The position numbers and the translations under genes are program-made. The notes beneath the pieces were generated by a model, which saw only the letters and a program-made list of their open reading frames with translations, did not search any database and was not told where the DNA came from. Shown here one piece after another: positions 993 to 57,592 of a stretch of 64,000 nucleotides of DNA. Where the stretch lies: assembly GCA_017410525.1 (NCBI GenBank), contig JAFQQQ010000003.1:46209-110208 (forward strand), in the 5' to 3' direction. Source of the DNA: Bacilli bacterium (GTDB taxonomy: Bacteria > Bacillota_I > Bacilli_A > RF39 > UBA660). The number at the start of each line of letters is the position of its first letter. Position 1 is the first letter of the stretch.

Positions 993-1008
993 TTTACTCT
1001 TTTCTTTT

Positions 1009-2660: not shown

Positions 2661-2711
2661 AGATAGATTTTTCTATCTTTTTTTAGTATAATTGTTGTTG
2701 GAAGTGATTAC

Positions 2712-5489: not shown

Positions 5490-5567
5490 AGTTTTGGTAA
5501 ATTATATAGGTAGGGTGTACAAACTTACCTTTTTTTGATATAATGTAATTTGAAGGTAGGTGGTATA

Positions 5568-7637: not shown

Positions 7638-7645
7638 GAGGTAGT

Positions 7646-9553: not shown

Positions 9554-9691
9554 AATTATCACCATAATAATTATAACTTAAATGTTAAAAAAAATAAAGT
9601 TCTATTTACAAATCTCGACAGTTTTTTTAAAAATGTCTGTAAAACCTTTATAATTACATATAATTGTGTTATAATTAAAAAGGTGATACAA

Positions 9692-10723: not shown

Positions 10724-10756
10724 GTAAAAAAAGAAAAAGAGGTTTGAAAAATAAAC

Positions 10757-14322: not shown

Positions 14323-14346
14323 TACATTGGGAAGGAAGATTTTAAT

Positions 14347-15273: not shown

Positions 15274-15284
15274 GAGTGATTTAT

Positions 15285-16244: not shown

Positions 16245-16248
16245 TAAT

Positions 16249-17421
16249 ATGAAAAATATATTATTTGTAGTAGATGATAAAAAAATGGGTGGGGTTTCTA
16301 TATTATTAGAAGATATTTTAAATAGATTAAATTTAAATAAATTTAATATTGATCTTTTAATACTAAAAAATGAAGGCGAATTGTTAAGTAAAATTCCATC
16401 AAAGATAAATATACTTTATGGTGATGAATTTTTTTACCCAATAAATTATTCATTATCTTCTGCAATCAAAGAAAAAAAACTAAAAAAAATAATTGATAAA
16501 GCTTTATTAGTTTTATATATGAAAACACCAATAATAAAATATATAATAAAAAGTAAAAGAAAAAAAATATTAAAAAAACAATATGATACTGAATTGGCTT
16601 TTAAAGATGGTTTTTGTGGACTATTTGTTGGATATGGTGATTCAAAAAGAAAAGTTCAATGGTTACATGCTGATTATTCTAGCCAGGATGATATTCAAAA
16701 TTATAAAACTAAATTTAAAAAATTATATAAAAATTTTGATAGAATTGTGGGAATTTCAAAACCAGTAGCTAAATATTTTAATGATAAGTATGGTTGTGAA
16801 GATAAAACAATTTGTATATATAATTTTGTAAATACACAAAAAGTTATTGAAAAATCTAATGAATATGAAATTAAGAAAGATTCTAAAAAAATTAATTTTG
16901 TCTCTGTAGGAAGATTTCATAAAATGAAAGGGTATTTAAGACTTATACGCGTTATTAATAAATTAAATCAAAATAATGAATTTAATAATTGCCATTTAAC
17001 TATAGTTGGTGATGGTCCGGAATATAATGAAGCTATTAATTTAATAAAAGATTACGATATAGGTGATAAAATTACTTTAATTGGATCTAAACAAAATCCA
17101 TTTCCATATGTAAAAAATTCAGATTGTTTTATTATGGGATCAGTTTATGAACCGTTTGGTTTAACTGTAATTGAAGCATTAACCCTTAAAGTTCCAGTTT
17201 TATCTACTGAGGTTGCTACTATAAGGGAAATGTTATCTAAAGAATATGGATTAATTGTAGAAAACAGTGAAAAAGGTTTATATAATGGATTTAAAAAAAT
17301 AATTAATAATAAAAATTTATTAAAAAATTACAAAAAAAATGTAAAAAATTATCAATATGATACTAAAAAAATAATTAAACAAATAGAAAATTTGTTGGAA
17401 GGGAAGCTACAAAATGAATAA
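16249..17421 (+). CDS. family-4 glycosyltransferase
   Basis: C-terminal EX7E motif (YEPFGLTVIEAL). 390 aa. Confidence 0.75.
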   Translation: MKNILFVVDDKKMGGVSILLEDILNRLNLNKFNIDLLILKNEGELLSKIPSKINILYGDEFFYPINYSLSSAIKEKKLKKIIDKALLVLYMKTPIIKYIIKSKRKKILKKQYDTELAFKDGFCGLFVGYGDSKRKVQWLHADYSSQDDIQNYKTKFKKLYKNFDRIVGISKPVAKYFNDKYGCEDKTICIYNFVNTQKVIEKSNEYEIKKDSKKINFVSVGRFHKMKGYLRLIRVINKLNQNNEFNNCHLTIVGDGPEYNEAINLIKDYDIGDKITLIGSKQNPFPYVKNSDCFIMGSVYEPFGLTVIEALTLKVPVLSTEVATIREMLSKEYGLIVENSEKGLYNGFKKIINNKNLLKNYKKNVKNYQYDTKKIIKQIENLLEGKLQNE

Positions 17422-19933
17422 TTTTTTAAAAGAAGAAACAGTAAAAAAAATGTTATTTTTATTTATAATTATTCAACCATTAATGGATATATATTATTTA
17501 TATACTATTCCTAATTTAGGTGGGGTTTTTGTTTTTTCTCCTTCTACTATAATTAGATTTGTGTTTTTTGGAATTTTATGTTTATTTGCATTTCTAATTT
17601 TAAAAAAGAAAAATAAATTTAAACTTTTATGGTGGTTTATCTGTATAGTATTAATATATACATTATTTCATCATTTAAATTGTTTAAATTATAATAATGA
17701 AATATTAGGAAATCAAACTTATTCCTTAATAACTGAACTTTTTTATATTGCAAGAATGTTAATGCCTATATTATTAATCTATATAAGTTATAATTTTAAA
17801 TTAAGTGAGAAAAAATTAAGTAAAGCATTATTTATTACTGCAGCTATATTTTCTTTTACAATGGTTATAACTAATTTGTTTTTAATTGCAATACCTTCAT
17901 ATGACGGTGCGACAAATATTAAAGTAAATTTTTTACAATGGTTTTCTCTAAAAAATCAAAATATAGAATTTATCTATATTGCGTCAAAAGGTATATTTCA
18001 CATGGCAAATCAAATAAGTGGAACTTTTGTTTTAATATTACCATTGTTAATTTATTATTTTAATAAAAAACATACTTTTTTAAGATTTATAATTATTTGT
18101 TCATTAATTTTGTCAATGCTTATGTTAGGTACTCGCGTTGCTTCGTATGGAGCGATTATTATCTGCATTGCAATGTTTGTTATGTATTTATTTTTCTATA
18201 TTTTAAAAAAAGAATATAATATAAATAAAAAAGTTATAGTTTCTAATTTTTTCCTTATAATCTTTTCAATAGTTTTCTTTTGTTTTAGCCCTGTTGTTTA
18301 TAGAAATTTTACTTCGACTATACCAAGTGATGATTCATATTCAAAAGAACAAACTATTATTAAAAAATATAATACTTTATTAAAGGAAAATAATAAAAAA
18401 GAATTAATCAAATTTATAAAGGAAAACTCATTAATATTTTCTATAAGAGAAAAATATACAAATGAAGTATATCCAGCAGAAAATAATTTAAATTTTTGGA
18501 TAAATACTTTTAATTTACCAATAGAAAAAAGAAATGATGATAGAAAAATTCAACAACTTATATTGGAGGATGTATTTAATAGAAACAATTCTATTTTTGA
18601 TGTTTTTTGTGGGATTGGCTCAAGTAGAGTTAGAAATAGTAGTATATATATTGAAAAAGATTTTATAGTACATTACTATATGCTTGGAGTTTTTGGATTA
18701 TTTGTTTTTATATCTCCTTATGTAATTATCTTATGTTATAGTGTTTTTAAGGTTTTGAGAAGGAATAAACAAACTTTTAATTATAAAAATTGTACTTTTA
18801 TATTTGCTACATTTTTAACTTTGATATGTAGTATTTATAGTGGTAATGTTTTAGATGAATTAATAATTACTGTTTATTTAGGAATTGTATTAGGAACTTT
18901 ATTATCGAATATTAATAATAATAGTTCTAAACAAAAATTAGAGGATAATAAGCTTAAATTAAGTGTTATTGTTCCTGTATATAATGTAGAAAACTATTTG
19001 GAAACATGTTTGGATAGTTTGATAAATCAAACAATTACTAATTATGAAATAATAGTAGTAAATGATGGAAGTCTTGATAGTAGTCAATCTATAATTGATA
19101 AATATCAAAAATTATATCCAGATAAAATAAAAAGTTATATAAAAGAAAACGGTGGGTTAAGTGATGCTAGAAATTATGGATTAAAATATGCAAAAGGGGA
19201 GTATATTGCTTTTCTAGACAGTGATGATTATGTAGAATATAATATGTATGAATTAATGTATAATAAAGCAGTATCACAAAATTTTGATGTTGTAGCATGC
19301 AATGTAAAATATGTATATGAAAATGAAAACAAAACTTTCTTATGTAATTCTAAAATATATTCTGATCTATTTGAAGAAAAAGAAATAAAAAAACTAATGT
19401 TAGATATATATCCTGCTGTATGGAACAAAATTTATAAGAGAGAAAAATTTCAAAAATTTAAATTCAAGAAAAATGCTTGGTTCGAAGATGTTGAATACTT
19501 ATATAGAATTTTTCCTTATATTTCATCTATGGGGACTATTGATAAAGCATTAATAAATTATAAACAAAGAGAAGGTGCAATAACAAAAACTTTTGACGAA
19601 AGATTATTACACCAAATATCTAATTGGAATGGAATTGTTGAGTATTATAAAAAAAATAATTTATTAGAAAAATATGAAAAAGAAATAGAATATTGCTATG
19701 TTAGATATTTATATGCAACTCTAGTAAGTCATTCTTTGAATTATAATAATTATGATTTTTTCAAAAAGGTATTGGATGAATGTGATAAAAATGTAAAAGA
19801 AAACTTCCCTAATTATAGAAAAAATAAGTATTTATATACAAATGGCTTAAAAGGTTTATATTTATTATTTTATAATAAAAAAATTATTAAAAAATTATAT
19901 AAATATAAACATAAAAATGGAGGTAATAAATAA
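17414..19933 (+). CDS. fusion protein: N-terminal polytopic Wzy/O-antigen-ligase-like polymerase domain + C-terminal family-2 glycosyltransferase
   Basis: First ~500 aa carry about 10-12 TM helices in an O-antigen-ligase-like arrangement. Last ~330 aa have GT2 motifs LSVIVPVYNVENYL and DSDDY. Confidence 0.6.
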   Translation: MNNFLKEETVKKMLFLFIIIQPLMDIYYLYTIPNLGGVFVFSPSTIIRFVFFGILCLFAFLILKKKNKFKLLWWFICIVLIYTLFHHLNCLNYNNEILGNQTYSLITELFYIARMLMPILLIYISYNFKLSEKKLSKALFITAAIFSFTMVITNLFLIAIPSYDGATNIKVNFLQWFSLKNQNIEFIYIASKGIFHMANQISGTFVLILPLLIYYFNKKHTFLRFIIICSLILSMLMLGTRVASYGAIIICIAMFVMYLFFYILKKEYNINKKVIVSNFFLIIFSIVFFCFSPVVYRNFTSTIPSDDSYSKEQTIIKKYNTLLKENNKKELIKFIKENSLIFSIREKYTNEVYPAENNLNFWINTFNLPIEKRNDDRKIQQLILEDVFNRNNSIFDVFCGIGSSRVRNSSIYIEKDFIVHYYMLGVFGLFVFISPYVIILCYSVFKVLRRNKQTFNYKNCTFIFATFLTLICSIYSGNVLDELIITVYLGIVLGTLLSNINNNSSKQKLEDNKLKLSVIVPVYNVENYLETCLDSLINQTITNYEIIVVNDGSLDSSQSIIDKYQKLYPDKIKSYIKENGGLSDARNYGLKYAKGEYIAFLDSDDYVEYNMYELMYNKAVSQNFDVVACNVKYVYENENKTFLCNSKIYSDLFEEKEIKKLMLDIYPAVWNKIYKREKFQKFKFKKNAWFEDVEYLYRIFPYISSMGTIDKALINYKQREGAITKTFDERLLHQISNWNGIVEYYKKNNLLEKYEKEIEYCYVRYLYATLVSHSLNYNNYDFFKKVLDECDKNVKENFPNYRKNKYLYTNGLKGLYLLFYNKKIIKKLYKYKHKNGGNK

Positions 19934-21804
19934 TGAATAAATATTTTGATTTATTATATAAAGATAGTTTTATTAAATTTATAAAATTTGTAAAAAATAA
20001 TTTATTAAAAGAGAAAAAAACTTTTATTGTAACAGCTAATCCAGAAACTTTTATGTTTTCTGAAAAAGACAAAGATTTAGAAAATATTATCCTTGATAAA
20101 AATGTAACGATTGTACCAGATGGTATTGGAATTGTTAAAGCTGCTAAAATGATAAATAATCCAGTTAAAGAAAGAATAACTGGAATTGATATAGCCAATG
20201 AATTATTAGATATAGCTAATGAAAATAAATTAAGTTTATATTTATTTGGTTCTGCTAAAGAAGTAATTAAAGCAATGGAAGAAGTAATAAATAAAAAATA
20301 TCCAAATATAAAATTATTAGGCACAAGTGATGGTTATGTCAAAGATAAAGATAAAGTTTTTGAAAAAATAGCTAAATTATCTCCAGATATAGTAATGGTA
20401 GCTCTTGGAATACCAAATCAAGAAAAACTAATTTACAAGCATTACAATAAATTTAAAAAAGGTGTATTTATAGGAGTAGGTGGATCTTTTGACGTTATAA
20501 GTGGTTATAAAAAAAGAGCTCCTAAATTATTTATAAAATTAAATTTAGAATGGTTATATAGAATTTTAAAAGAACCAAAAAGAATAAAGAGATTTTATAA
20601 TAGCAATGTTAAATTTTTAATGAATATTCAAAAAAAAAAATTAAATAATAAAATTAATATATTGTTTTTAATAATTTGTTGTTTAATTTTGTTATTTGGA
20701 TTATTTAATTCTATTTTTAATCCAAAAGACATTAATCAATATGAAAATCGTACTGCATATAAAATACCAAAATTTGAACTGAAAGGTTTTATTAATAAAA
20801 CCTTGCAAGATCAAATTGAACTTTCATTTTCAGATCAAATACCAATGGCCATTCTAATGAAAAAAACATATAATTATATTCAAGCATTCACATCACAACA
20901 AATTACAAATATATTATTAAAAAACAAATGTAATAATTTATATATAAATATAAATGATAGTATTAGTACTTTTGGTTGTGATAAACACTTGGTATATAAG
21001 CAATCAACTCTAAAATCTGATAAAGAGAGTTATAAAAAAAGAATTGAAAATATAAATAAATTTATTAAAAACATGAATGGAAAGGTTTATTTATATTATA
21101 TTGAAAAAGATACAGATATAAATTTTGTTAACAATAAAAAATCTAATATATATGAATATTTAGAAAAAAATATAAATTCAAAAAATATGTATAGATTTGA
21201 AATAAACAATTTTGAAGAGTATAAACAATATTTTTATAAGACAGATCATCATTGGAATTATAAAGGTTCCTATTTAGCATATAAAGATTTAGTTAATATT
21301 TTAACTAATGAGAAACCTTTAAATTTTGAAAATGAAAAATGTATAAATGATTATTTTAGTGGTTCTAAAGCTAGTATAGGTGGTGTTTCATCTATATATA
21401 AAGAACATTTTTGTGCTTATGAATTTGAATTTCCAAAACTTGATATTTATATAAATGGTAAAAAAGAAAACTATGGAAAAGAAGAATATTATTTTAAAAA
21501 AAATAATGAATATGTTTCTTATGCTTTATTTTATGGTGATGATTATGCTGAAATAATATTTGATTCAAATAATTCTAAAAAAGAAAATATTTTAATTATT
21601 GGAGAATCATATGATAATGCTATTTTAAAATTATTATCAACTCACTTTAATAAAACATATTCAATAGATTTGCGTCATTATGAAAAATATGCAGGAGAAA
21701 AATTTAATTATTTTGATTATATTTTAGAAAAAGATATAGATAAAGTTCTTTTAATAGGTAATAAGGATTATTTTTTATTGGAAGACTTCTATTTGGAGGT
21801 ATAA
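19933..21804 (+). CDS. fusion protein: WecB/TagA/CpsF-family (GT26) ManNAc transferase + C-terminal DHHW-family domain
   Basis: N-terminal ~240 aa carry TagA motifs (GVGGSFDVISGYKKRAPK, LEWLYRILKEPKRIKRFY). A TM helix follows. The C-terminal domain contains a literal DHHW motif (KTDHHWNYKGSY). Confidence 0.7.
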   Translation: MNKYFDLLYKDSFIKFIKFVKNNLLKEKKTFIVTANPETFMFSEKDKDLENIILDKNVTIVPDGIGIVKAAKMINNPVKERITGIDIANELLDIANENKLSLYLFGSAKEVIKAMEEVINKKYPNIKLLGTSDGYVKDKDKVFEKIAKLSPDIVMVALGIPNQEKLIYKHYNKFKKGVFIGVGGSFDVISGYKKRAPKLFIKLNLEWLYRILKEPKRIKRFYNSNVKFLMNIQKKKLNNKINILFLIICCLILLFGLFNSIFNPKDINQYENRTAYKIPKFELKGFINKTLQDQIELSFSDQIPMAILMKKTYNYIQAFTSQQITNILLKNKCNNLYININDSISTFGCDKHLVYKQSTLKSDKESYKKRIENINKFIKNMNGKVYLYYIEKDTDINFVNNKKSNIYEYLEKNINSKNMYRFEINNFEEYKQYFYKTDHHWNYKGSYLAYKDLVNILTNEKPLNFENEKCINDYFSGSKASIGGVSSIYKEHFCAYEFEFPKLDIYINGKKENYGKEEYYFKKNNEYVSYALFYGDDYAEIIFDSNNSKKENILIIGESYDNAILKLLSTHFNKTYSIDLRHYEKYAGEKFNYFDYILEKDIDKVLLIGNKDYFLLEDFYLEV

Positions 21805-21807
21805 GAT

Positions 21808-23220
21808 ATGTTATTTAGTAGTTTAACATTTTTATTTGGATTTTTACCTGTTTTATTTTTAATCTACTTTATTTGTCGAAATAATTTTGCTAAAAATATT
21901 ATTTTGCTTCTATTTTCATTAATATTTTATGCTTGGGGAGAACCTAAATACATATTTTTAATGTTGTTTACAGTGTTAATTGTATATATATTTGGCATAT
22001 TAATTGATAGATGTGATAAAACAAAAAAATATATAAGAAAAAAAGTATTTTTTATAATATGTATAGTATTATTAATTTTTAGTTTAGTATTTTTTAAGTA
22101 TAGTAATTTTATCTTTCAGAACATAAATAATATTTTTGGAGCTAATATAAAAACTTTAAAAATAGTATTGCCAATAGGAATTAGTTTTTATACTTTTCAA
22201 ATTCTTTCTTATATTATTGATTTATATAATAAAAAAATAAAGGTACAAAATAATTTTTTTAATTTAGCTTTATATGTTTCATTTTTTCCTCAATTAATTG
22301 CTGGACCGATAGTTAGATATGAAACAATAGAGGAAGAAATTTCTAATAGAAAAGAAAGTTTAGAAAATATAGTTTCTGGAGCTAAAAGATTTATTATAGG
22401 ATTATCAAAAAAAATAATAATTGCTAATCAAATGGCTATATTTGCTGATTTAATTTATAATAATTATTCTGTTTCTTATGGAACATCTATAATTTGGCTT
22501 GCGACAATTGCTTATACATTTCAGATATATTTTGATTTTTCTGGATATAGTGATATGGCTATAGGTTTAGGTAAAATATTTGGATTTAATTTTTTAGAAA
22601 ATTTTGATTATCCATATATATCGACTTCTATTACTGAATTTTGGCGCAGATGGCATATATCTTTATCCAGTTGGTTTAGAGATTATGTATATATACCTTT
22701 AGGAGGAAACAGGGTAAATAAAACTAAATGGATTAGAAATATTATAATTGTTTGGTTGTTAACTGGTTTATGGCATGGTGCTGCTTGGAATTTTATCATT
22801 TGGGGATTATTTTATGGATTTTTACTTTTATTTGAAAAATTATTTTTCAAAAAAGTATTAGATAAATTACCAAAATTTATTTGTTGGTTATATACTATTT
22901 TTATTATATTAATAGGATGGCTAATTTTCAGAGTCAATTCATTAGAACAATTAATAATATATTTAAAAGAAATGTTTATATTTAATAAAACTGATTGGAT
23001 TTTTATTTTATCTAATGAGCTTACAACTTTTAATTCGTTGATTTTTATTATACCAGCAATAATTTTTTCTACACCTATCATAAAAAAAATTAATATAAAA
23101 TTTGGTGGGAAAGTTTGGTATACTACAATTTATAATATAATGTTATTAGTGCTGCTATTAGTATGTATTACTTGTTTGACAAGTTCTTCATATAATCCGT
23201 TCATTTATTTTAGATTTTAA
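21808..23220 (+). CDS. MBOAT-family membrane O-acyltransferase (AlgI/DltB-like) 1
   Basis: Signature FWRRWHISLSSWFRDYVYIPLGG with the catalytic His. Polytopic membrane protein. Confidence 0.85.
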   Translation: MLFSSLTFLFGFLPVLFLIYFICRNNFAKNIILLLFSLIFYAWGEPKYIFLMLFTVLIVYIFGILIDRCDKTKKYIRKKVFFIICIVLLIFSLVFFKYSNFIFQNINNIFGANIKTLKIVLPIGISFYTFQILSYIIDLYNKKIKVQNNFFNLALYVSFFPQLIAGPIVRYETIEEEISNRKESLENIVSGAKRFIIGLSKKIIIANQMAIFADLIYNNYSVSYGTSIIWLATIAYTFQIYFDFSGYSDMAIGLGKIFGFNFLENFDYPYISTSITEFWRRWHISLSSWFRDYVYIPLGGNRVNKTKWIRNIIIVWLLTGLWHGAAWNFIIWGLFYGFLLLFEKLFFKKVLDKLPKFICWLYTIFIILIGWLIFRVNSLEQLIIYLKEMFIFNKTDWIFILSNELTTFNSLIFIIPAIIFSTPIIKKINIKFGGKVWYTTIYNIMLLVLLLVCITCLTSSSYNPFIYFRF

Positions 23221-23247
23221 TAGTTAAAAAAGAGAGGAAGTTTAAAA

Positions 23248-24696
23248 ATGTTGTTTAATTCATTTAAGTTTTTAATTTTTTTTCCAATTGTTACTTGTAT
23301 ATATTTTTTAATAAAAAAAGATAATATTAAATTAATTTGGTTATTGATTTGCAGTTACTTTTTTTACATGTGTTGGAATCCAATTTTTGCTTTATTAATG
23401 TTGTTTTCTACCTTTGTTACTTATATTTTTAGTTTATTAATGGAAAAATACAAAAAGCATAAAAAATTATTTTTAATTTTAAGTTTAATTATAAACTTGT
23501 TAATATTATTTTGTTTTAAATATCTTACTTTTATAATTGAAAATATAAATAATATATTTAAATTCTTCAATATTAGTGGTATAAAAACATTTGATATATT
23601 ATTACCAGTAGGTATTTCATTTTATACATTTCAGGCATTAAGTTATTCTTTTGATGTTTATAGGAATGATGTAAAAGTAGAAAAAAATTTTATAAAATAT
23701 GCACTTTTTGTTTCTTTTTTTCCACAATTAGTAGCTGGTCCCATTGAAAAGTCAAAAATATTTTTGAGTCAGTTTAATTTAAAACACAAATTTGATTATA
23801 ATAAAGTTAAAAACGGTATTTTAATAATGTTAGGTGGTTTTATTTTAAAACTTGTTATTGCTGATCGAGCTGCAATAGCAGTAAATCAAGTATATAATAA
23901 TTTATCATTATATACAGGATTATCATTAATATTAGCAACTGTACTTTTTGCTTTTCAAATATATTGTGATTTTTATGCTTATTCATTAATAGCAAAAGGG
24001 TCTGCACAGGTATTAGGATATAATTTATCACAAAATTTTAATAAACCTTATTTATCAACTAGTATAAAAGATTTTTGGAGAAGGTGGCATATTTCACTTA
24101 GTACTTGGTTTAAGGAATATTTATATGTTCCACTTGGTGGTAGTAAAGTAAGTAAGTTAAAAACAATAAGAAATATTTTAATTGTTTTTTGTGTTAGTGG
24201 TTTATGGCATGGTGCAGCTTGGACATTTCTAATATGGGGGTTATTACACGGATTATATCAAGTTATAGGAATGCTTATTAAAAATATTAGAAATAAAATT
24301 TCAAATATTCTTTTATTAGAAAAACATCCATTAATACACAAAATATTTCAAATAATAATTTGTTTTATACTTGTGGATTTTGCTTGGATTTTCTTTAGAG
24401 CTAATACTTTATATGATGCTTTTTATGTAATAAAAAATATTTTTGATTTTTCAGAAGGATTAAAACTAGCTAATTTTGGTTTATCAAGAGCAAATCTTGT
24501 GTTATTATTCTTCTCTATAGTATGTTTAATGATTTATGAGATATTTAATCATAAGTTTGATATTATAAAATTTATTAATAAAAGAAACATTATTGTTAGA
24601 TGGATTTTATATTTTATAATAATATATATAATACTTATTTTTGGAATTTATGGTCCAGGTTATGATGCTTCTCAATTTATATATTTTCAATTTTAG
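23248..24696 (+). CDS. MBOAT-family membrane O-acyltransferase (AlgI/DltB-like) 2
   Basis: Paralogue of the upstream gene. Signature FWRRWHISLSTWFKEYLYVPLGG. Confidence 0.85.
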   Translation: MLFNSFKFLIFFPIVTCIYFLIKKDNIKLIWLLICSYFFYMCWNPIFALLMLFSTFVTYIFSLLMEKYKKHKKLFLILSLIINLLILFCFKYLTFIIENINNIFKFFNISGIKTFDILLPVGISFYTFQALSYSFDVYRNDVKVEKNFIKYALFVSFFPQLVAGPIEKSKIFLSQFNLKHKFDYNKVKNGILIMLGGFILKLVIADRAAIAVNQVYNNLSLYTGLSLILATVLFAFQIYCDFYAYSLIAKGSAQVLGYNLSQNFNKPYLSTSIKDFWRRWHISLSTWFKEYLYVPLGGSKVSKLKTIRNILIVFCVSGLWHGAAWTFLIWGLLHGLYQVIGMLIKNIRNKISNILLLEKHPLIHKIFQIIICFILVDFAWIFFRANTLYDAFYVIKNIFDFSEGLKLANFGLSRANLVLLFFSIVCLMIYEIFNHKFDIIKFINKRNIIVRWILYFIIIYIILIFGIYGPGYDASQFIYFQF

Positions 24697-24705
24697 GAGG
24701 TATAC

Positions 24706-25647
24706 ATGAAAAAAATTATAATTAAAGTTATTATATTTACAGTTTTATTTTCTATTTCACTTTTTGTAGTTTCAAAAATTTTTGTTAGAAAAGGTGATGG
24801 TTATGGAACTGATGTACTTTCATTCTATAATGAGAAAGAAAATTCTATGGATTTAATATTTTTTGGATCATCACATAGTTATTCAACGTTTTCTCCTAAA
24901 GTTTTAGAAGAAAAAACAGGGTTAAAGTCTTATAATTTTGCAACTCAACAACAACCTCTTTGGATTACATATCATTACATGATTGAAAGTTTAAAGTATC
25001 AAAAACCAAAATATTTTGTTTTGGAAATATTAATGACTAGTGTAAATCAAAGTTATATGGAAGAAGGAGTAAATCGCGATGCAATAGACAAAATGAGATT
25101 TTCATTTAACAAAATACAAGCAATAAATTCTAGTGTTGAAAATTTTTCTGATAGAATAAGTTATTACTTAAATATAATAAAATATCATAGCAGATGGAAT
25201 GAGTTGAGTAAAAAAGATATAGTAGATAATTTAAAAAATAATATCAGTGACTCTAAAGGGTTTACTTATTTAAAAGGAAATGTTGAGCCTGCATATAAAA
25301 ATGATGTTACTAATTTTAAAGAAACTAAAAAGATAACTAAAAAGAATAATTTATATTTAAAAAAGATTATTGAATTAGCTAAAGACAATAATATAGAATT
25401 GATTTTAGTTAAAAGTCCTTGTACAATAACTAAGGAAAATCAAGCTTATTATAATTATGTTGAAGAAATAGCAAAAGAAAATAATATTAAATATTTGAAT
25501 TATAATTTGTTATATGATATACTTGAATTAGATTTTGAAAATGATTTTTATGATAGTGGTCATTTGAAAGGTGAAGCAGCTATAAAAGTAACTAATCATT
25601 TTGCGAAGTATTTGATTGAAAAGTATGATATACAAGGAGGTAAATAA
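24706..25647 (+). CDS. membrane-anchored SGNH/DltD/AlgX-like esterase-acyltransferase partner protein
   Basis: N-terminal TM anchor. GDS-like block FFGSSHSYSTF near the N-terminus. C-terminal DSGHL (DxxH). Confidence 0.55.
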   Translation: MKKIIIKVIIFTVLFSISLFVVSKIFVRKGDGYGTDVLSFYNEKENSMDLIFFGSSHSYSTFSPKVLEEKTGLKSYNFATQQQPLWITYHYMIESLKYQKPKYFVLEILMTSVNQSYMEEGVNRDAIDKMRFSFNKIQAINSSVENFSDRISYYLNIIKYHSRWNELSKKDIVDNLKNNISDSKGFTYLKGNVEPAYKNDVTNFKETKKITKKNNLYLKKIIELAKDNNIELILVKSPCTITKENQAYYNYVEEIAKENNIKYLNYNLLYDILELDFENDFYDSGHLKGEAAIKVTNHFAKYLIEKYDIQGGK

Positions 25648-26756
25648 TGATAAAAGTTATGACTGTTTTTGGAACTAGACCAGAAGCTATAAAAATGGCC
25701 CCGTTAGTTAAGGAGTTAAATTCTAGAGAAGAAATAGAAAGTATAGTATGTGTTACTGCTCAGCATAGAGAGATGTTGGATCAAGTATTAGAAACATTTG
25801 ATATTAAACCTGATTATGATTTAAATATAATGAAACAAGGACAAACATTAGGTGATGTTACTACAAGAGCGCTTAAAGGTCTTGAAGCAGTAATTAAGGA
25901 AATTAATCCTGATATAGTTTTAGTACATGGTGATACTACTACTACTTTTGCAGGAGCTTTAGCCGCCTTCTACAATCAAGTTGATATTGGTCATGTAGAA
26001 GCTGGATTAAGAACTTATGATAAATATTCACCATATCCAGAAGAAATGAATAGACAAATGGTTACTTGTATGACCGATATGTATTTTGCTCCTACAAAAC
26101 TAAGTGCTTCAAATTTAATCAAAGAAGGCAGAGATAAAGAAAAAATATATATTACGGGAAATACCGCTATTGATGCTATGAAAGTCACTATAAATAAAGA
26201 ATATAAAAGCGAGATTTTTGATTGGGTAGGAAATGACAGAATGATTCTTTTAACGGCTCATAGAAGAGAAAATTTGGGTGAACCAATGAAAAATATATTT
26301 AGAGCAATTAAAAGAATAATAAATGAATTTCAAGATGTAAAAGTTGTTTATCCAATACATTTAAATCCCAAAATAAGAGAAATTGCAAACGAGATTTTTA
26401 ATGACTGTGAGAAAATTAAAATAATAGAACCTTTAGAGGTGTTTGATTTCCACAATTTTCAAAATAAATCTTACATAATATTAACAGATAGTGGTGGTAT
26501 TCAAGAAGAAGCTCCATCTTTAGGTAAACCTGTATTAGTATTAAGAGATACTACTGAAAGGCCAGAAGGAATAGAAGCTGGAACATTAAAACTTGTAGGT
26601 ACGGATGAAGAAGTAATATATAGAGAAACAAAACTATTATTAGGTAATAAAAAAATTTACGATAAAATGAGCAAAGCTAGTAATCCATATGGTGATGGAA
26701 AAGCTAGTCAAAGAATAGTAGATGCGATTATTCAAAAATATAGTAAAGCAAAATAA
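25647..26756 (+). CDS. mnaA: UDP-N-acetylglucosamine 2-epimerase (non-hydrolysing; MnaA/WecB)
   Basis: MIKVMTVFGTRPEAIKMAPL and a full-length 369-aa epimerase. Confidence 0.9.
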   Translation: MIKVMTVFGTRPEAIKMAPLVKELNSREEIESIVCVTAQHREMLDQVLETFDIKPDYDLNIMKQGQTLGDVTTRALKGLEAVIKEINPDIVLVHGDTTTTFAGALAAFYNQVDIGHVEAGLRTYDKYSPYPEEMNRQMVTCMTDMYFAPTKLSASNLIKEGRDKEKIYITGNTAIDAMKVTINKEYKSEIFDWVGNDRMILLTAHRRENLGEPMKNIFRAIKRIINEFQDVKVVYPIHLNPKIREIANEIFNDCEKIKIIEPLEVFDFHNFQNKSYIILTDSGGIQEEAPSLGKPVLVLRDTTERPEGIEAGTLKLVGTDEEVIYRETKLLLGNKKIYDKMSKASNPYGDGKASQRIVDAIIQKYSKAK

Positions 26757-26820
26757 AATTTGTCTTTAATAAAAAACATTAAATATCATATAATATATTA
26801 GAAATGTAAATCATATCAAT

Positions 26821-26849
26821 TTGACAAATATTTTTAAATTTGGTATCAT
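26821..26849 (+). promoter_or_regulatory. sigma-A type promoter for the candidate ncRNA
   Basis: TTGACA (26821-26826), a 17-nt spacer, then TATCAT (26844-26849). Confidence 0.6.
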
Positions 26850-26856
26850 GTTAATT

Positions 26857-27467
26857 GTCGATGGCACATTATTCTAGTCAGAGATTTATTATGAGGACGG
26901 GGCTAAAAATCCGTTAAAGAGCATATCTGTGAAACTTCTTGTGCTTGCTTCTTTTGCCCAAATTGGGGTGAGTGCTGGAAATGAGAGTGTTGGGCATCCA
27001 TAATGGCATATGTAAATGACCCACCATTCGTGGAGACCTATTCTTGTGTTTGGCCTATACGAACAAACTGACGGACTGAATACGAAATAGGATTAAACCT
27101 ACCAAGTGGCGAAAGTTACGGGTAGTGTAGCTTGTCTTGAGTGAGTAATAGGGATTATTGATTAACAATTTAGTAAGTTTATAGCTAGAACTTATATAAG
27201 TTGCAATATGAAATATTGTTTGCAAAAAAGAATTAATAATAAAAATTTGGTGAGGAAATCTTCTAGGGTGTTGTTAATATAGGATTGCAGTGCATACTAA
27301 GTGGCAATCAAGTAGTATATTTGGTGACAATATACTGAATTCTTTAAAGGGGAACCGCCTACTGGTAACGGTAAGTAGAATTTAGGGAAATCCAACTTGA
27401 CCTAAGATGCAAAGTTAATTATATTAACGCCATTATATATTAAAGACTATTCATTAGTCTTTTTTTG
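26857..27467 (+). ncRNA. candidate large (~610 nt) structured noncoding RNA, possibly OLE-like; identity unverified
   Basis: Longest ORF-free stretch in the window. G+C is visibly higher than the flanks. Bounded by a consensus promoter and an intrinsic terminator. Many GAAA/GNRA-type loops and short stems. No ORF longer than 30 codons in either strand. Confidence 0.45.
27443..27467 (+). terminator. intrinsic terminator ending the candidate ncRNA
   Basis: AAGACTA-TTCAT-TAGTCTT hairpin followed by T7. Confidence 0.6.
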
Positions 27468-27514
27468 TTGTTAAAATAGGTATTTTGTGTTAAAATTATA
27501 ATAGGTGATAAATA

Positions 27515-27919
27515 ATGGAAGAAAATAAAAATGTTGAGATAGTACAAAATAATAAAGAGATAATGAATGAAGAATTTGCTTCTACTCAACAAGAAGTTGC
27601 AGAAGAAATAGATTCTGATTTTTCTGATATAAATAAAGAAGAAATGAAAAAAAATTATATTATTATAGCAATTCTTTATTTTGTTGTAATTATTTTATTT
27701 ATATTGTTAGTACTAGGTATAAAAAATCAAAAAGATACAGTTAAAGATAAAATAGATAGCAACAAAGAAGTTAATGATAAATTAGAACAAGAAAAAAACG
27801 AGGAAGTTGTTATTCCAGAAGAAAGACCAAAAAATCAAACTCCAGAAGAAATTATTATTCCTGATATAAATAATAATAATGGTTTAAATGATGAATTAAA
27901 TATTTTAGATCAAATATAG
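27515..27919 (+). CDS. hypothetical single-pass membrane protein with acidic N-terminus
   Basis: 134 aa. RBS AGGTGA. One TM helix. Low-complexity, E/K-rich. Confidence 0.5.
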   Translation: MEENKNVEIVQNNKEIMNEEFASTQQEVAEEIDSDFSDINKEEMKKNYIIIAILYFVVIILFILLVLGIKNQKDTVKDKIDSNKEVNDKLEQEKNEEVVIPEERPKNQTPEEIIIPDINNNNGLNDELNILDQI

Positions 27920-27927
27920 AGGTTAAC

Positions 27928-28473
27928 ATGAAAAAAAATAATAAGAAAAAAAATACGGTAGATTATAGTTGGATAATTAAAATAGTGCTTTCTAGTTTTT
28001 TAATATCAGTAGTATTTACACTTATATCAGAAACAGTAATACCTAATGTAGGAATTATATTAGGTTCAATTTTAACATTGGTTTTTATACTTGTAGGAGT
28101 TTTATTTGATATGATTGGTCTTGCTGTTGCAACCGCAGATGAAGCACAATTTAATTCAATGGTAGCTAAAAGGGTTAAAGGTGCTAAAATGGCTTTGAAA
28201 TTAAAGAAAAATGCAGATAAAGTATCAAGTTTTTGTAATGATGTAGTAGGAGATATATGTGGTATAGTATCGGGATCTACAGGCGCAGTTATTGCTATAA
28301 AAATAGTAGAATATTATAATTTTAATCCATTATTAGTTACACTTATTATAATGGGTATAATTTCTGCTTTAACAATAGGTGGTAAAGCGTTAGAAAAGGG
28401 TTATGCTATGAAAAAAAGTAATAGTATTTTATTTGGTTTTGCTAAGTTTTTAAGTTTATTTGTAAAAGAATGA
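27928..28473 (+). CDS. small four-TM membrane protein (OapA-like candidate)
   Basis: 181 aa. Four predicted TM helices. Basic loop KRVKGAKMALKLKKNADK. RBS GAGG. Confidence 0.45.
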   Translation: MKKNNKKKNTVDYSWIIKIVLSSFLISVVFTLISETVIPNVGIILGSILTLVFILVGVLFDMIGLAVATADEAQFNSMVAKRVKGAKMALKLKKNADKVSSFCNDVVGDICGIVSGSTGAVIAIKIVEYYNFNPLLVTLIIMGIISALTIGGKALEKGYAMKKSNSILFGFAKFLSLFVKE

Positions 28474-28481
28474 GGTGTTGT

Positions 28482-29402
28482 ATGAAAAATAAAGGATTCA
28501 CTCTTGTAGAATTATTAGCAGTTCTTATTATACTTGCTATTATATTTGTTATTTCTGTTCCTTTAATGACTGAAATATTAGATCAAAGTAAAAATACGCT
28601 ATATAAAAAACAAATTAATACAATTCTAGATGCAACTTATGATTATTCTTTAAAATATATTGAATATTTACCCGAAGACAATAATATCAGTTATATAACA
28701 CTAGGAGAATTAAAATATGAAGGTATAGTTGATTATGATTTAACTGATCCGGAAACAAATGAAAGATTTAAAAATGAATTAGTCATAAGTATTAACAAAG
28801 TAGGTACAGGATATAAAAATAGTGATATACATGCTAAATTAAAAGGTGACTATTTATATATAGTAGAAGTTGATAAATTAAAAGAAGCTAAAAATTTAAA
28901 ACCCATTATTACTTTGGATGGTTTAACAAAAAATACAGATGGAAATTATATTTTAACACTCGATTTAAATCAAGAAATTAATAATATTGCTTATAGTGCG
29001 ATTTCCGCAAATGGAGTAGATTTAACTAAAAAAGTAAAAAAATATATTTTATTAAATGATATTCCAACTGATAATATCACTACAACTAATTCAGGTATAT
29101 ATAAAGTTCATTATACAGTAGTAGATAACAATGGGTATGCTAATACAGCTACCTTAAGTATTATAATTGCGGATACAACAATACCTACAATTACGCTTCC
29201 AAATACAAATAAAATTGGTAAAGATGTAACAAATTTTGATTTATTAAAAAATGTTACTTGCGAAGATAACAGTGGTTATTGTGATATAGAGTTTTCTGGA
29301 GAAATAGATTATGGTGTTGTTGGAAAATATATAATTACATACACAGCAAAAGATCCAAGTGGAAATACAAGCATAAAGAAAAGAGTAATTACAATAGAAT
29401 AA
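28482..29402 (+). CDS. type IV pilin-like (prepilin N-terminal methylation domain) protein with Ig-like C-terminal region
   Basis: Classic class-III signal MKNKG/FTLVELLAVLIILAII. ATG at 28482 after GAGGTG. C-terminal beta-rich repeats. Confidence 0.65.
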   Translation: MKNKGFTLVELLAVLIILAIIFVISVPLMTEILDQSKNTLYKKQINTILDATYDYSLKYIEYLPEDNNISYITLGELKYEGIVDYDLTDPETNERFKNELVISINKVGTGYKNSDIHAKLKGDYLYIVEVDKLKEAKNLKPIITLDGLTKNTDGNYILTLDLNQEINNIAYSAISANGVDLTKKVKKYILLNDIPTDNITTTNSGIYKVHYTVVDNNGYANTATLSIIIADTTIPTITLPNTNKIGKDVTNFDLLKNVTCEDNSGYCDIEFSGEIDYGVVGKYIITYTAKDPSGNTSIKKRVITIE

Positions 29403-29472: not shown

Positions 29473-31002
29473 ATGAAAAAAATTAAGTTAATTGTATTAG
29501 TTTTATTAATAGTTTTATTAATTATAATTCTTTTTTATGAAATTTTTGGAACAAATTTATCTTACTTATCTTCTAGAGAAATAAAAGAAAATAGAATTTT
29601 AAATACAAATTTAATTACTCAATTAAAAATTAATAATGTAGATGCAATTTACGAAAAAAATACCAATACATTTTATTACACGATTCCAAGTAAATATGAA
29701 AATAATTTATATATTTTAAACTTAAATTTAGAAGATGGATTTAAATATAAAATAATTGATGAAACATTAAATATTATTAAAGTTAATTATACTAAAGAGA
29801 TAAACGTTATCATTTACAATGATAAATATTATTTTGAAACAAAAATACAATTAACAAATCTGCCTTTAATAAATATACTTAGTGAAGATGAAATTACTTC
29901 TAATGATACTAAGACACAGTTTAATTATTTTAATAATACTAATACTAAAAAAACAATTAATTTGAATAGTTTAATCAACATTAGAGGATCAACATCTAAA
30001 TGGTTTGATAAAAAATCTTATAAAATAAATTTTACTAATAAATCGTATACAGATGAAAAAGATATAAATATAGAAAATTTTTATAATGGCGATTCGTTGA
30101 TTTTAGATGCTGTTTATAGGGATCCTTCCAAAATAAGAAATGTTTTATGTATTGAGTTGTGGAATAACATTTCTAATGATTTTAGTAATGTAAATATATA
30201 TAGCGAGTTTGTAGAATTATTTATAAATAATGAATATAAAGGATTATATGTTTTAACTGAACCAATAAATAGAACTAAATTAAATTTAAATAAGACTTCT
30301 TCAAATGACACTAGTGTTATTGTAAAATCAAGTGTATGGGGAAAAATTCTTAATATAAGAGAGTATTATAAAATAGGTGAAAATGAATATTTGTATTATG
30401 AATTGAAATATCCAAATGATAAGAATATGTACGAAAAATCCTGGAATATAGTGTTAAATAAATTATCTAAATATTATAATAATGTAGATTTGTATGATGT
30501 TATAAAAAATAGTTTTAATATAGAAAATTATATTGACATGATAATATTTAATGCATTTACAAATAATGTAGATAATAAAATTGAAAAAAATAATTATTTC
30601 TATATAAATAGTTTAACAGATCCCCAACTGTTTATACAGCCTTGGGATATGGAATATACTTATGGACTTTTATTTGCAGAGAATATGTTTAACAATTTTA
30701 TAAAAAAAGAAGATTATAAAATAATATACACTAAATTTTATCACACAAATTCCTCTGAAATAAATAAATTACTAATAGAAAGATATTGGGAATTAAGAGA
30801 AAATATTTTAACTATAGATTTTTTTGATAGCTTATTAGGTAAATATTTAGATGAATTAACTAAGGGAGCTGCTTCAAGAGATTCAGAGAAGTGGTATGAA
30901 TATGATATAGAAAAAGAAATAGAAGAAATAAGAAGTTGGATTTACAATAGAATAGAATTTTTTGATGAATACGTGGAAAGCATAGAAAATGAAAAATCTT
31001 AG
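29473..31002 (+). CDS. CotH kinase-family protein
   Basis: N-terminal TM helix. CotH-like block NIRGSTSKWFDKKSYKINF. 509 aa. Confidence 0.6.
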   Translation: MKKIKLIVLVLLIVLLIIILFYEIFGTNLSYLSSREIKENRILNTNLITQLKINNVDAIYEKNTNTFYYTIPSKYENNLYILNLNLEDGFKYKIIDETLNIIKVNYTKEINVIIYNDKYYFETKIQLTNLPLINILSEDEITSNDTKTQFNYFNNTNTKKTINLNSLINIRGSTSKWFDKKSYKINFTNKSYTDEKDINIENFYNGDSLILDAVYRDPSKIRNVLCIELWNNISNDFSNVNIYSEFVELFINNEYKGLYVLTEPINRTKLNLNKTSSNDTSVIVKSSVWGKILNIREYYKIGENEYLYYELKYPNDKNMYEKSWNIVLNKLSKYYNNVDLYDVIKNSFNIENYIDMIIFNAFTNNVDNKIEKNNYFYINSLTDPQLFIQPWDMEYTYGLLFAENMFNNFIKKEDYKIIYTKFYHTNSSEINKLLIERYWELRENILTIDFFDSLLGKYLDELTKGAASRDSEKWYEYDIEKEIEEIRSWIYNRIEFFDEYVESIENEKS

Positions 31003-31666
31003 AAATGAATTAAAATATAAAATAACAGATAATGATTTTTATTTGTTAAATCTTAATTTAAAAAACTTAATAAAAAAAGATTCTAATTGTAAAGATGAGT
31101 TTTATAGCATTTCAAGTATTTATTTTGATAATTATAAAAAAACTTCTTATTATCAAGTTAAAAATGGAATAAGTGAAAGATGGAAATATAGAATAAGATT
31201 TTATAACTATGATGATTCATATATAATGTTAGAAAAGAAATATAAAATAAATGGATTAACTAATAAAAATGGTGTTAGAATTACTAGAGAAATGTTAGAT
31301 AATATTTTAAAAGGTAATGTGAAAATTGAAAAAAATCATAATAAATTATTAAACGAATTTATAATTAAAATAAAAACTGAATTATTAAAACCAATAATAT
31401 GTATTGAGTATGATAGAATACCTTATGTATATAAACTTGGAACAGTTAGATTAACTTTGGACTATAATATAAGGTATACAAATAATTATAGTGATTTATT
31501 TAATAAAAATAAAAAAGTGCATTATTTAAAAGATAAAATATTAGAAGTCAAATATAATGAATTAATTCCAGATTTTATAAGATATAGATTAGAATTAAAT
31601 CATTTAGAACAAATATCTTTTTCAAAATTTAATAATTGTATAGACAATTTAAATAGGAGGTTTTAG
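30989..31666 (+). CDS. VTC (polyphosphate-polymerase-like) domain protein
   Basis: ELKYKI..FYSISSIYFD..WKYRIRFYNYDDSYIMLEKKYK matches the bacterial VTC domain pattern. Confidence 0.65.
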   Translation: MKNLRNELKYKITDNDFYLLNLNLKNLIKKDSNCKDEFYSISSIYFDNYKKTSYYQVKNGISERWKYRIRFYNYDDSYIMLEKKYKINGLTNKNGVRITREMLDNILKGNVKIEKNHNKLLNEFIIKIKTELLKPIICIEYDRIPYVYKLGTVRLTLDYNIRYTNNYSDLFNKNKKVHYLKDKILEVKYNELIPDFIRYRLELNHLEQISFSKFNNCIDNLNRRF

Positions 31667-31668
31667 GT

Positions 31669-32349
31669 ATGATTTTAAAAGTAACCTTTGATGAAATATT
31701 TAAAGATAGTTTTTTAAATAATTTTTCATCTAATGTGTCAATTCCAACAATATGTGTGACACTTATATATACATTTTTATTATCTATATTTGTATTCTTT
31801 ATATACAAATTAACTACTAAAAATGTAATATATTCAAAGAAGTTCAATATATCAATGTCTTTGATGTCTATAATAACTGCTGCGATAGTTCTATCTATGC
31901 AAGCAAACATTACAGTATCACTTGGTATGGTTGGAGCTTTATCAATAGTAAGATTTAGAACTGCGATAAAAGAGCCGAGAGATTTACTTTTCTTATTTTG
32001 GAGTATATCTAATGGTATAATAATAGGAGCTCAGGTTTATTCAATGGCAATAGTACTTGCTATTGTGCTTGGTATAGCTATGTTATTCTTTGATATAATT
32101 CCAGAAAAAAAGATTCCATATTTACTAGTTATATATTTTAAAAGTGTAAAAACGAGAGATATAGAAATAATTCTTGGCAGTCATAAAGTAAAATATAAAT
32201 TAAAATCAGAAAATTTATCTAGTAAAGAATCTAGTTATATTTATGAATTAAAAGTTAAGAAAGATAAATCTTTTGTAGAAGAGATATTAAAAATTAAAGG
32301 AGTTAGTGAAGTTAACTTACTAAGTCAAGATGGAGAAAGTCAATATTAA
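31669..32349 (+). CDS. DUF4956 membrane protein
   Basis: SIVRFRTAIKEPRDLLFLFWSI matches the DUF4956 core. Multi-TM. Confidence 0.65.
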   Translation: MILKVTFDEIFKDSFLNNFSSNVSIPTICVTLIYTFLLSIFVFFIYKLTTKNVIYSKKFNISMSLMSIITAAIVLSMQANITVSLGMVGALSIVRFRTAIKEPRDLLFLFWSISNGIIIGAQVYSMAIVLAIVLGIAMLFFDIIPEKKIPYLLVIYFKSVKTRDIEIILGSHKVKYKLKSENLSSKESSYIYELKVKKDKSFVEEILKIKGVSEVNLLSQDGESQY

Positions 32350-32387
32350 ATCAACTTTATTTAGTTGATTTTTTTTATAATTATTAT

Positions 32388-32416
32388 TGACAAAATAGGT
32401 AACATATGTTACCATG
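32388..32416 (+). promoter_or_regulatory. promoter with embedded perfect 16-bp palindromic operator
   Basis: TTGACA at 32388-32393. GGTAACATATGTTACC at 32398-32413 sits between the -35 and -10 regions. RBS GGAGG at 32439. Confidence 0.55.
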
Positions 32417-32455
32417 TAAATGTATTAAGTTGTATCTTGGAGGTGTAATGTATCG

Positions 32456-32787
32456 GTGAATAATGATCAACTAAAGATTTTATCAAAAATGAAGAAATTA
32501 ATTAAATTAGGTAAAAGAAGATTCCAAATTAGAGAGACAGAGATTATTTACAAGATTTACTTGAACTAGGCATTAGTGAATCAGAAGCATGGAACGTTAT
32601 TTTAGAATTAAATAAACATTTTTATTTTAATGATCCTAAACCTTCATATTATAAAAACACTGATACATTAATTTTTAAAAAGCAAATAAATGGTATTGTT
32701 GCATATATTAAATTAAAAATTGAAAATAATAATAACCAAGAAGAGATAGTGGTATGTATATCTTTTCATGAAGATAATAGATTTTAA
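32456..32787 (+). pseudogene. MqsR-family (RelE-fold) type II toxin gene, interrupted by a single-nucleotide frameshift
   Basis: Frame 1 (GTG 32456) reads VNNDQLKILSKMKKLIKLGKRRFQIRETE... and stops at 32567. The +1 frame reads DYLQDLLELGISESEAWNVILELNKHFYFND...YIKLKIENNNNQEEIVVCISFHEDNRF and ends at 32787. The joined product aligns along the whole of E. coli MqsR. Confidence 0.6.
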
Positions 32788-32801
32788 AGGAGAATGTAAT
32801 T

Positions 32802-33770
32802 ATGAAATGTGATATTTGTGGGGGAACAAATACTTATATTAAAAATTACAAGCATGAATATACGATAAAAGGTAGAAATATAGAATTCGAAAGTGAAAGA
32901 TGTTTTTGTATTGAATGTAATTCTATCGTATATGATCAAATATTAGATAATATAGCAAGTGAAAAAGCAATAGATACATATAATAAAAAATATGGTATTT
33001 GTAAAGAAAAAATTATTGAATTAAGAAATAAATATAATTTGTCTTTAGAGTTGTTTGCTAAAATAATTGGATGTGCTAAAAAGACATTAATAAGCTATGA
33101 AAAAGGAACATCTATACCAAACGATAATTATATTATTATTTTAAATAGTTTATTATCAAACCCATTATTAATAATAGATTTGATAGAATCAAATAAAGGT
33201 CAATTCACTCAAAAAGAATATTCAAAATTGCAAGATAAACTTATACAAAACAACAACATAAATCAATTATTTTTTGATACTGATTTTGAACCTACTGTAT
33301 ATAATGGTTATACAAGATTAAATAAGAATAAAGTTTTAAATATGATTTTATTTTTAGCGGACACTACAATTTTAAAAACAAAGTTATTGAAAGAAATGTT
33401 TTATTCAGATTTTTTATATTATAAAAACACTGGTGCCTCAATAACAGGTTTAGAATATGCAAAAATAACACACGGTCCAGTGCCTGATAATTTTGATGAA
33501 ATAATTAGTGCTTATGTAGAACAAGGTTTAATAGATTATAAAATTGAATATGAAAACGATTATGAAAATCATAAAATTAGTAGTATTGATAAATTTAATA
33601 AAAATATTTTTTTAAGTGATGAATTAAAAATTTTAGAACAAGTAAAAAAATATTTTGAATCTTTTACTTCAAAACAAATAGCAGAGTTTTCACATATGGA
33701 AAAGGCATTTACTGAAACTGAATTTAGTAAAAAAATTGAATATGATTATGCCTTTTATTTAAGTTTATAA
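32802..33770 (+). CDS. MqsA-like antitoxin (Zn-ribbon + XRE HTH) fused to a C-terminal Panacea/DUF4065 domain
   Basis: MKCDICGG...KGR...CFCIECN zinc ribbon. HTH LSLELFAKIIGCAKKTLISYEKG. The C-terminal ~190 aa carry the DUF4065 pattern KLLKEMFYSDFLYYKNTGASITGLEYAKITHGPV. Confidence 0.7.
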   Translation: MKCDICGGTNTYIKNYKHEYTIKGRNIEFESERCFCIECNSIVYDQILDNIASEKAIDTYNKKYGICKEKIIELRNKYNLSLELFAKIIGCAKKTLISYEKGTSIPNDNYIIILNSLLSNPLLIIDLIESNKGQFTQKEYSKLQDKLIQNNNINQLFFDTDFEPTVYNGYTRLNKNKVLNMILFLADTTILKTKLLKEMFYSDFLYYKNTGASITGLEYAKITHGPVPDNFDEIISAYVEQGLIDYKIEYENDYENHKISSIDKFNKNIFLSDELKILEQVKKYFESFTSKQIAEFSHMEKAFTETEFSKKIEYDYAFYLSL

Positions 33771-57591: not shown

Positions 57592-57592
57592 T

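Follow-up and report, generated by a model that had tools for sequence, protein, structure and literature searches.

A probable full-length OLE RNA gene linked to oapA in the genome of an uncultured member of Bacillota

What is encoded by the longest stretch free of open reading frames (ORFs) in a 64,000-nucleotide segment of contig JAFQQQ010000003.1, from the Bacilli bacterium assembly GCA_017410525.1? The whole segment is called the window here, and positions are counted from its first letter. The gap in question covers 758 nucleotides (nt; 26757-27514), between mnaA/wecB (UDP-GlcNAc 2-epimerase, 25647-26756) on the 5' side and an ORF starting at 27515 on the 3' side, and it is the longest in the window at both ORF cut-offs used (at least 60 and at least 90 amino acids, aa). 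An earlier note on this DNA, made from the letters alone, had singled out the same gap and had named OLE RNA with a downstream OapA as its leading guess. We conclude, with a probability of about 95%, that the gap holds ole, which encodes an RNA of about 610 nt that is a full-length member of the OLE (ornate, large, extremophilic) family; the genome is that of an uncultured member of Bacillota. The OLE RNA family was first described in 2006 and is modelled in Rfam.

The whole window was compared with Rfam 15 with gathering thresholds as cut-offs, followed by a permissive scan of 26600-27700 at E <= 1. OLE (RF01071) was the sole Rfam family to match the window at gathering thresholds. The match, located at 26845-27449 on the plus strand (605 nt), scored 374 bits (gathering score 50; E = 2.5e-106), spanned positions 1-616 of the 616 in the model with posterior probabilities near 1, and is near-perfect across all strongly conserved blocks. 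These blocks, CUAGUCA, CUAAAAAUCC, GCCCA, AAUGGCAU, GGAGACC and GGAUUAAACC as well as GUGUAGC, GAGGAAAUC, ACUAAGUGG, UUUAAAGGGGAACCGC, GGGAAAUCC and GACCUAAG, are all present and are invariant in 15 sequences, including the window. Among the four covariance models that the earlier note had named for a check (OLE, ROOL, GOLLD and raiA), only OLE gave a match, and the leading guess was borne out by this full-length score, with oapA found as the second downstream ORF. The RNA of the window is an ordinary new copy of an already known family.

The identification was examined independently among relatives. With the 181-aa protein encoded downstream (OapA, see below) as query, 20 loci (given L numbers below) were fetched from GTDB species representatives; in 17 of them the oapA homologue is preceded by an OLE match, and across these 17 loci every match not cut by a locus edge was full length. 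Alignment A1 consists of the window and 14 full-length homologues from related metagenome-assembled genomes (MAGs), with a mean column identity of 78%. Its consensus fold comprises 160 pairs in 21 helices, including long-range helices that link the 5' conserved block with the region after P9, and 97.6% of the sequence-by-pair cells are standard pairs. Compensatory double changes occur at 78 of the 160 pairs, compared with 43.7 +/- 3.6 in column shuffles, none of 500 of which reached the observed number, and with only 10-21 when the 3' partners were slid by 1-3 columns. Because covariation preserves the fold across relatives, the region is a selected structured RNA and not a decayed gene; covariation in relatives had been proposed in the earlier note as a check on its reading, and these counts answer it in the affirmative.

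The composition and signals of the gap agree with an RNA gene of this size. No ORF inside it is longer than 56 aa on either strand. The G+C content of 26845-27449 is 0.355 (0.42 in the 5' half), while the window mean is 0.243 (standard deviation 0.036), and 0 of 2536 sliding 605-nt windows in the 64 kb are as rich in G+C. The sigma-A-type promoter of ole (Table 1) agrees with the consensus at 11 of 12 positions, carries a TG extension, and is the top promoter-like site of the scanned region; nearly all of the 14 relatives likewise have TTGACA and a -10 box at a constant distance from the invariant GATGGCAC. Transcription would start near 26856. At the other end, direct folding of the terminator hairpin (27442-27462, then U7) gave -7.4 kcal/mol (z = -2.8 against shuffles), and hairpin and U-run are kept in the close relatives L003-L006; the stem changes of L006 are compensatory, and L005 differs in the loop. 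A consensus terminator scanner called no terminator here, because this scanner requires at least three G-C pairs and the stem has only two. The primary transcript is predicted to run from about 26856 to about 27466, which is about 610 nt and agrees with the earlier estimate. The raised G+C, the gap as the longest ORF-free stretch of the window, the near-consensus promoter and the intrinsic terminator had all been pointed out in the earlier note and stood up to measurement, the promoter through its recurrence in relatives and the terminator through folding and comparison.

The 181-aa ORF downstream was accepted as oapA because of a Pfam CNNM match (PF01595; score 34.1 bits, cut-off 28.4), its hydropathy and DxxxD motif, and the synteny seen in 17 of the 20 loci. 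The motif is DVVGD at D105-D109, and a basic loop rich in K and R lies around residues 80-97, as judged from motif and hydropathy. According to previous studies, the DxxxD motif, four transmembrane (TM) segments and a basic patch distinguish OapA from true CNNM domains (PMC11332333, PMC12265935). No NCBIfam model matched the 181-aa protein; a phmmer search of PDB sequences gave a lone match to a capsid protein (E = 0.23), which was judged to be chance. The small downstream protein to which the earlier note gave four TM segments corresponds to the second ORF, with its four hydrophobic segments; the first encodes a 134-aa protein with one TM segment.

That the gap holds instead a different or new large structured RNA of the ROOL, GOLLD or raiA kind, with a superficial resemblance to OLE, is extremely improbable. 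Apart from the prior of the earlier note, which had called a ROOL-like or entirely new RNA equally possible, this idea draws on the non-canonical neighbourhood of ole; however, no Rfam family other than OLE matched in 26600-27700 at E <= 1, and the match to OLE extends over the entire model, posteriors being near 1, so that this alternative is already refuted. ROOL, GOLLD, raiA, riboswitch and leader readings were dropped on the same result, and none of ROOL, GOLLD and raiA gave a gathering-score match anywhere in the window. A decayed protein gene, or a degenerating and non-functional relic of OLE, has a similarly minute chance of being correct. It would fit the long gap and the ORFs of up to 56 aa on both strands; however, substitutions in the 15 homologues keep base pairs and not reading frames, as the compensatory pairs and the proportion of paired cells in A1 demonstrate, the highly conserved OLE nucleotides are all intact, the promoter and terminator of ole are conserved, and an intact oapA is retained. 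No excess of pair-breaking substitutions was seen in close relatives, and no protein-level match was seen across the ole region, though no translated search was made. Since a full-length score and independent covariation coincide, it is very unlikely that the OLE match is an artefact.

Another alternative, possible though we rate it as somewhat unlikely, concerns the extent of the transcript: ole could be the 5' part of a longer transcript that continues through the small TM gene, oapA and a prepilin-type gene, with the hairpin acting as a partial terminator or as a processing or stability element. The terminator stem is weak (8 bp, two G-C pairs), oapA begins 10-130 nt after OLE in more distant relatives, often with just a U-run in between, and ole of Halalkalibacterium halodurans was reported to be polycistronic (PMC12265935). 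However, the hairpin and U7 are kept with compensatory changes in L003-L006, and the terminator is followed by a TG-extended promoter-like site (27468-27496) that is retained in L003-L005. Moreover, other genes lie between ole and oapA in L007 and L009, and co-transcription is therefore not required in this clade. This alternative bears on transcript architecture only and not on the identity of the RNA.

Several observations weigh against this explanation, or against parts of it. Within the RNA, the P7 loop carries an 11-nt insertion relative to the Rfam OLE model, and a small, poorly conserved 12-nt hairpin of the model (positions 424-435) is missing. The terminator is modest in G-C pairs and folding energy, and read-through into the downstream genes is possible for this reason; the transcript ends and the abundance of the RNA are predicted. 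The gene oapA is two genes downstream of ole, with one gene intervening, and is not its immediate neighbour, and the surrounding genes are not the isoprenoid and DNA-repair set that usually accompanies ole. Pfam recognised neither oapB nor oapC (KOW-like and L7Ae-like, respectively) in the window, in a scan limited to ORFs of 90 aa or more, of which most but not all were covered; the two genes are not universal, being present in roughly 60% and 45% of the hosts of OLE, respectively. In addition, every mechanistic step proposed below would be transferred from other species.

Table 1. Positions of ole, its predicted signals and structural landmarks, and the linked downstream genes in the window
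Feature	Position	Strand	Remarks
OLE RNA gene ole (Rfam RF01071), full-length type	26845..27449	+	structured core from P1 5' strand to P1 3' strand
Sigma-A-type promoter of ole	26821..26849	+	-35 TTGACA 26821-26826, 17-nt spacer, TG-extended -10 TATCAT 26844-26849
P1 helix	AUGGC 26861-26865 / GCCAU 27429-27433	+	Rfam consensus GUGGU/ACCAC
A-rich loop L4 of P4	26903..26912	+	CUAAAAAUCC; read from sequence/Rfam alignment
J4a/5 strand	26926..26935	+	UCUGUGAAAC; C-helix pair, 3-nt bulge and G-A of a candidate k-turn for OapC
L9.3 palindromic loop	27182..27187	+	UAGCUA, core AGCU; self-complementary; predicted kissing loop for RNA homodimer
P13 hairpin	27315..27335	+	GUGA tetraloop, single bulged U; stem GUAUA-U(bulge)-UUG / CAA-UAUAC
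P14.1 hairpin	27359..27378	+	GUAA (GNRA) loop; predicted secondary OapB site (PMC7936274)
Intrinsic terminator	27442..27466	+	8-bp stem AAAGACUA/UAGUCUUU, 5-nt loop, U7
Promoter-like site before downstream operon	27468..27496	+	TTGTTA, 17 nt, TAAAAT, TG; 9/12 positions; weak prediction
134-aa single-pass membrane protein gene	27515..27919	+	between ole and oapA; clade-specific; no known family
oapA, 181 aa	27928..28473	+	CNNM/DUF21-like, four hydrophobic segments, DxxxD
Prepilin-type gene	28470..29402	+	GFTLVELL N-terminus/leader, C-terminal Ig (immunoglobulin)-like domain; tight against oapA

The landmarks of the RNA are listed in Table 1 under the published OLE nomenclature, onto which we inferred the mapping of the Rfam helices from the text of the papers. 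P1 differs from the Rfam consensus by two compensatory changes. P7 (17 pairs), P8 (13 pairs), the long P9 and the tip of P13 are all present; a shortened OLE variant type, which might be expected for reduced gut genomes, was rejected with P7, P8 and P9 found complete. Judged from the sequence, the dimerisation elements (A-rich L4, L5.1 and L6.1, the latter two read as GCCCA and AAUGGCAU, and the self-complementary L9.3) are all present in the window RNA. These elements were seen by cryo-electron microscopy (cryo-EM) as dimer bridges, L4 as an A-A bridge adjoining the proposed OapA-binding P4a region (PMC12286853, PMC12265935). The L9.3 core is GGCC in the more distant relatives, and a switch among GGCC, GAUC and AGCU palindromes was published as covariation supporting an intermolecular kissing loop (PMC12286853).

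The protein-binding landmarks could be placed in the same way. The candidate k-turn nucleotides UC-UGU-GA of J4a/5 are invariant in the 15 sequences, and their possible GA-GA partners, drawn by inspection only, are in UGAGAG (J5/6, directly 3' of P5) or GGAGAC (J6/7, 27029-27038); previous studies disagree on the partner strand, which was assigned to J5/6 (PMC9723947) or to J6/7 (PMC12286853). P13 is the predicted primary OapB-binding site, and its features exactly match the requirements for binding, namely a GNRA tetraloop together with a single-nucleotide bulge (PMC7936274). Two local stems had been proposed in the earlier note. The CTACT...AGTAG stem is real and corresponds to P14.1, but it lies at 27359-27378 and not at 27352-27374. 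For ATTGC...GCAAT (27284-27308), the sequences are present, but the Rfam consensus has no helix there, and the helix was not confirmed, as it shows only one-sided, wobble-compatible changes and overlaps with a consensus helix. GAUUGC (27283-27288) could pair with GCAAUC (27304-27309). The only substitutions there in relatives give G-U or U-G, and the G-C of this clade corresponds to A-U in the Rfam consensus; this pairing may be an alternative conformation.

Some relatives carry natural deletions in OLE. L014 is without P7, while L015, L018 and L019 are without distal P9, including the L9.3 kissing loop; the deletions in related MAGs fall in A1 columns 207-244 and 327-372.

A course of events can be proposed for the OLE particle by carrying over functional steps from H. 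halodurans and two Clostridium species, to which the window contributes sequence, fold, signals and gene linkage. The ole RNA would be transcribed as a discrete and abundant species and would fold into two domains that the long-range helix P3 connects. A membrane-embedded OapA dimer would then bind the RNA and hold it at the cell membrane, where the RNA may homodimerise through the A-rich L4, L5.1/L6.1 and the palindromic L9.3 loops (AGCU here). In genomes that have them, OapC would be recruited at the k-turn near P5 and OapB at the GNRA loop and bulged U of P13. By analogy, the assembled particle would help the cell to tolerate alcohols, cold, excess Mg2+ and poor carbon sources (PMC12265935, PMC11332333).

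The genes that flank oapA are distinctive for this clade. A gene for a small single-pass membrane protein (61-216 aa) lies directly upstream of oapA in the window and in L003-L009; a conserved N-terminal motif and a TM helix are common to these proteins, which also contain a variable acidic linker and, in most cases, a NILDQI-like motif at the C-terminus. For the 134-aa protein of the window, only 16 homologues were found in a large protein database, all without a name. Its matches to Baculo_11_kDa, DUF6377 and IcmG/DotF in Pfam and NCBIfam were sub-threshold and were set aside as noise from TM and low-complexity regions. The idea that the gene is a split-off N-terminus of OapA was also rejected: the N-terminal extra of distant OapAs is an unrelated short basic stretch, and all four hydrophobic segments are within the 181-aa ORF.

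On the other side of oapA, the prepilin-type gene starts either at 28470, which gives a 4-nt overlap with oapA, or at 28482, according to the gene call in L001. A gene of this type was found by tblastn within about 10 nt 3' of oapA in L003-L010, and L021 has a longer ORF, N-terminally prepilin-type, about 70 nt after oapA. Within the window, no genes for pilus assembly were recognised. The trio of small TM gene, oapA and prepilin-type gene is intact in L007 and L009, though other genes separate it there from ole, while in more distant relatives oapA directly follows ole, with neither a small TM nor a prepilin-type neighbour. The published phylogenetic-profiling study mentions neither gene type. 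It is conceivable, but improbable, that the OLE particle gained the 134-aa protein and the prepilin-type protein as two lineage-specific envelope partners in this Bacilli clade; the basis is synteny within one clade, which may reflect simple inheritance. It has been suggested that domain 2 of OLE is located on the outside of the membrane. If such a partnership were true, an exported pseudopilin-like partner would be the first handle on the extracellular side of the OLE complex.

The wider neighbourhood is only partly that of other ole genes. The immediate neighbours are MBOAT and MnaA cell-wall genes upstream and, downstream, the small TM gene, oapA, the prepilin-type gene and CotH; VTC, DUF4956, a gene resembling helix-turn-helix (HTH)/SocA proteins, and gyrB/gyrA come after these. 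The usual frame of ole-oapA is nusB-xseA-xseB...spoIVB together with ispA and dxs, and also recN and others; this frame is common but not defining. A cluster of nusB-xseA-xseB, a 206-aa ORF without a family, and spoIVB is located at 55905-59529, 28 kb downstream of ole, and we take it to be a remnant of the canonical frame; ispA and dxs were not found at this cluster. The earlier statement that the neighbourhood is not ispA-ole-oapA-dxs is therefore true of the immediate neighbours, but nusB-xseA-xseB...spoIVB does occur in the same window, at 55.9-59.5 kb. The trio CotH-VTC-DUF4956 (29473-32349) comes after the oapA block both in the window and in L003 and L006. Its position in L009 is 602-3289, with ole on one side and the small TM gene on the other, so that the same gene set has been reshuffled around ole.

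Samples from sheep, rabbit, rumen and human gut yielded the MAGs most closely related to the host, all of them Bacilli/Bacillota; OLE is expected in this phylum, typically in anaerobic or extremophilic members. SpoIIP, SpoIVB, the coat protein YlbD and CotH are encoded in the window, so that a spore-forming lifestyle, as the earlier note supposed in speaking of a spore-forming Firmicute, is plausible.

Other features of the window were recorded in passing. The ole promoter directly adjoins the end of a biosynthesis cluster of about 17 kb (9683-26756) for a glycopolymer of the cell wall or a teichoic-acid-like polymer; the cluster encodes TagO-like, flippase and TagF-like proteins, several glycosyltransferases (GT2/GT1), an O-antigen-ligase-like fusion, TagA/WecG-DHHW, two MBOAT acyltransferases and MnaA. 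Two adjacent large proteins at 5550-8950, one with dockerin and cadherin-like and the other with cohesin and cadherin-like modules, bring cellulosome-style modules into a very A+T-rich MAG. Two short consecutive ORFs (60403-60615 and 60720-60875) resemble peptide deformylase, as read from their translations, the second ending in a HEMYHLDG-type metal-binding motif; a frameshift, a split gene or a misassembly may explain the pair (60403-60875). An ORF-free gap of 452 nt (32350-32801), in which no Rfam family matched at gathering score, precedes an HTH/MqsA-like and SocA (Panacea) antitoxin-type gene (32802-33770).

OLE RNA is a large, highly conserved, membrane-associated and possibly membrane-spanning bacterial non-coding RNA. 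The locus described here adds one more full-length OLE to a family of which Rfam scans of GTDB genomes already recover thousands, the published catalogue listing 2,822 hits in Bacillota (PMC11332333). It also illustrates that an OLE gene is recognisable from composition and signals alone. Mildly new are the self-contained promoter-to-terminator ole unit, a clade in which ole-oapA lies outside its usual nusB-xseAB...spoIVB setting, and the tight linkage to two envelope-protein genes, which could be tested as accessory factors.

Compared with the OLE/OapA system of Halalkalibacterium (Bacillus) halodurans, the window shares the family, the length class, the conserved nucleotides, the GNRA loop and bulge of P13, the nucleotides of the candidate k-turn and a downstream oapA with DxxxD. 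In contrast to H. halodurans, the ole of the window has its own predicted promoter and terminator and is not inside a long operon; an extra small membrane-protein gene stands between ole and oapA, and the neighbours are cell-wall polysaccharide genes instead of ispA/dxs. The OapA of the window is without the basic N-terminal extension (about 15-25 residues) of the more distant relatives fetched. The OLE RNAs of Clostridium acetobutylicum and C. botulinum, whose cryo-EM structures were reported by Kretsch et al. (2025, PMC12286853; reviewed in PMC12265935), have L4, L5.1, L6.1 and a palindromic L9.3 in common with the window RNA, but its L9.3 core is AGCU and not GGCC, and it is known from sequence alone. 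ROOL, GOLLD and the raiA motif resemble OLE as large, ornate, G+C-enriched RNAs in Bacillota, some of them homo-oligomeric, but the window RNA has no match to them at E <= 1, and those RNAs are without an OapA partner. Finally, the hosts of OLE variant 1 (TANB77) and variant 2 (RF39) are uncultured gut bacteria and, like the host of the window with its very A+T-rich genome, known from metagenomes only (Fernando & Breaker 2024, PMC11332333). P7-P9 are shortened and the P13 tip is lost in variant 1, while P7 and P8 are absent in variant 2 (PMC11332333); unlike both variants, the window RNA keeps P7, P8, a full-length P9 and the P13 OapB site, and belongs to the full-length type.

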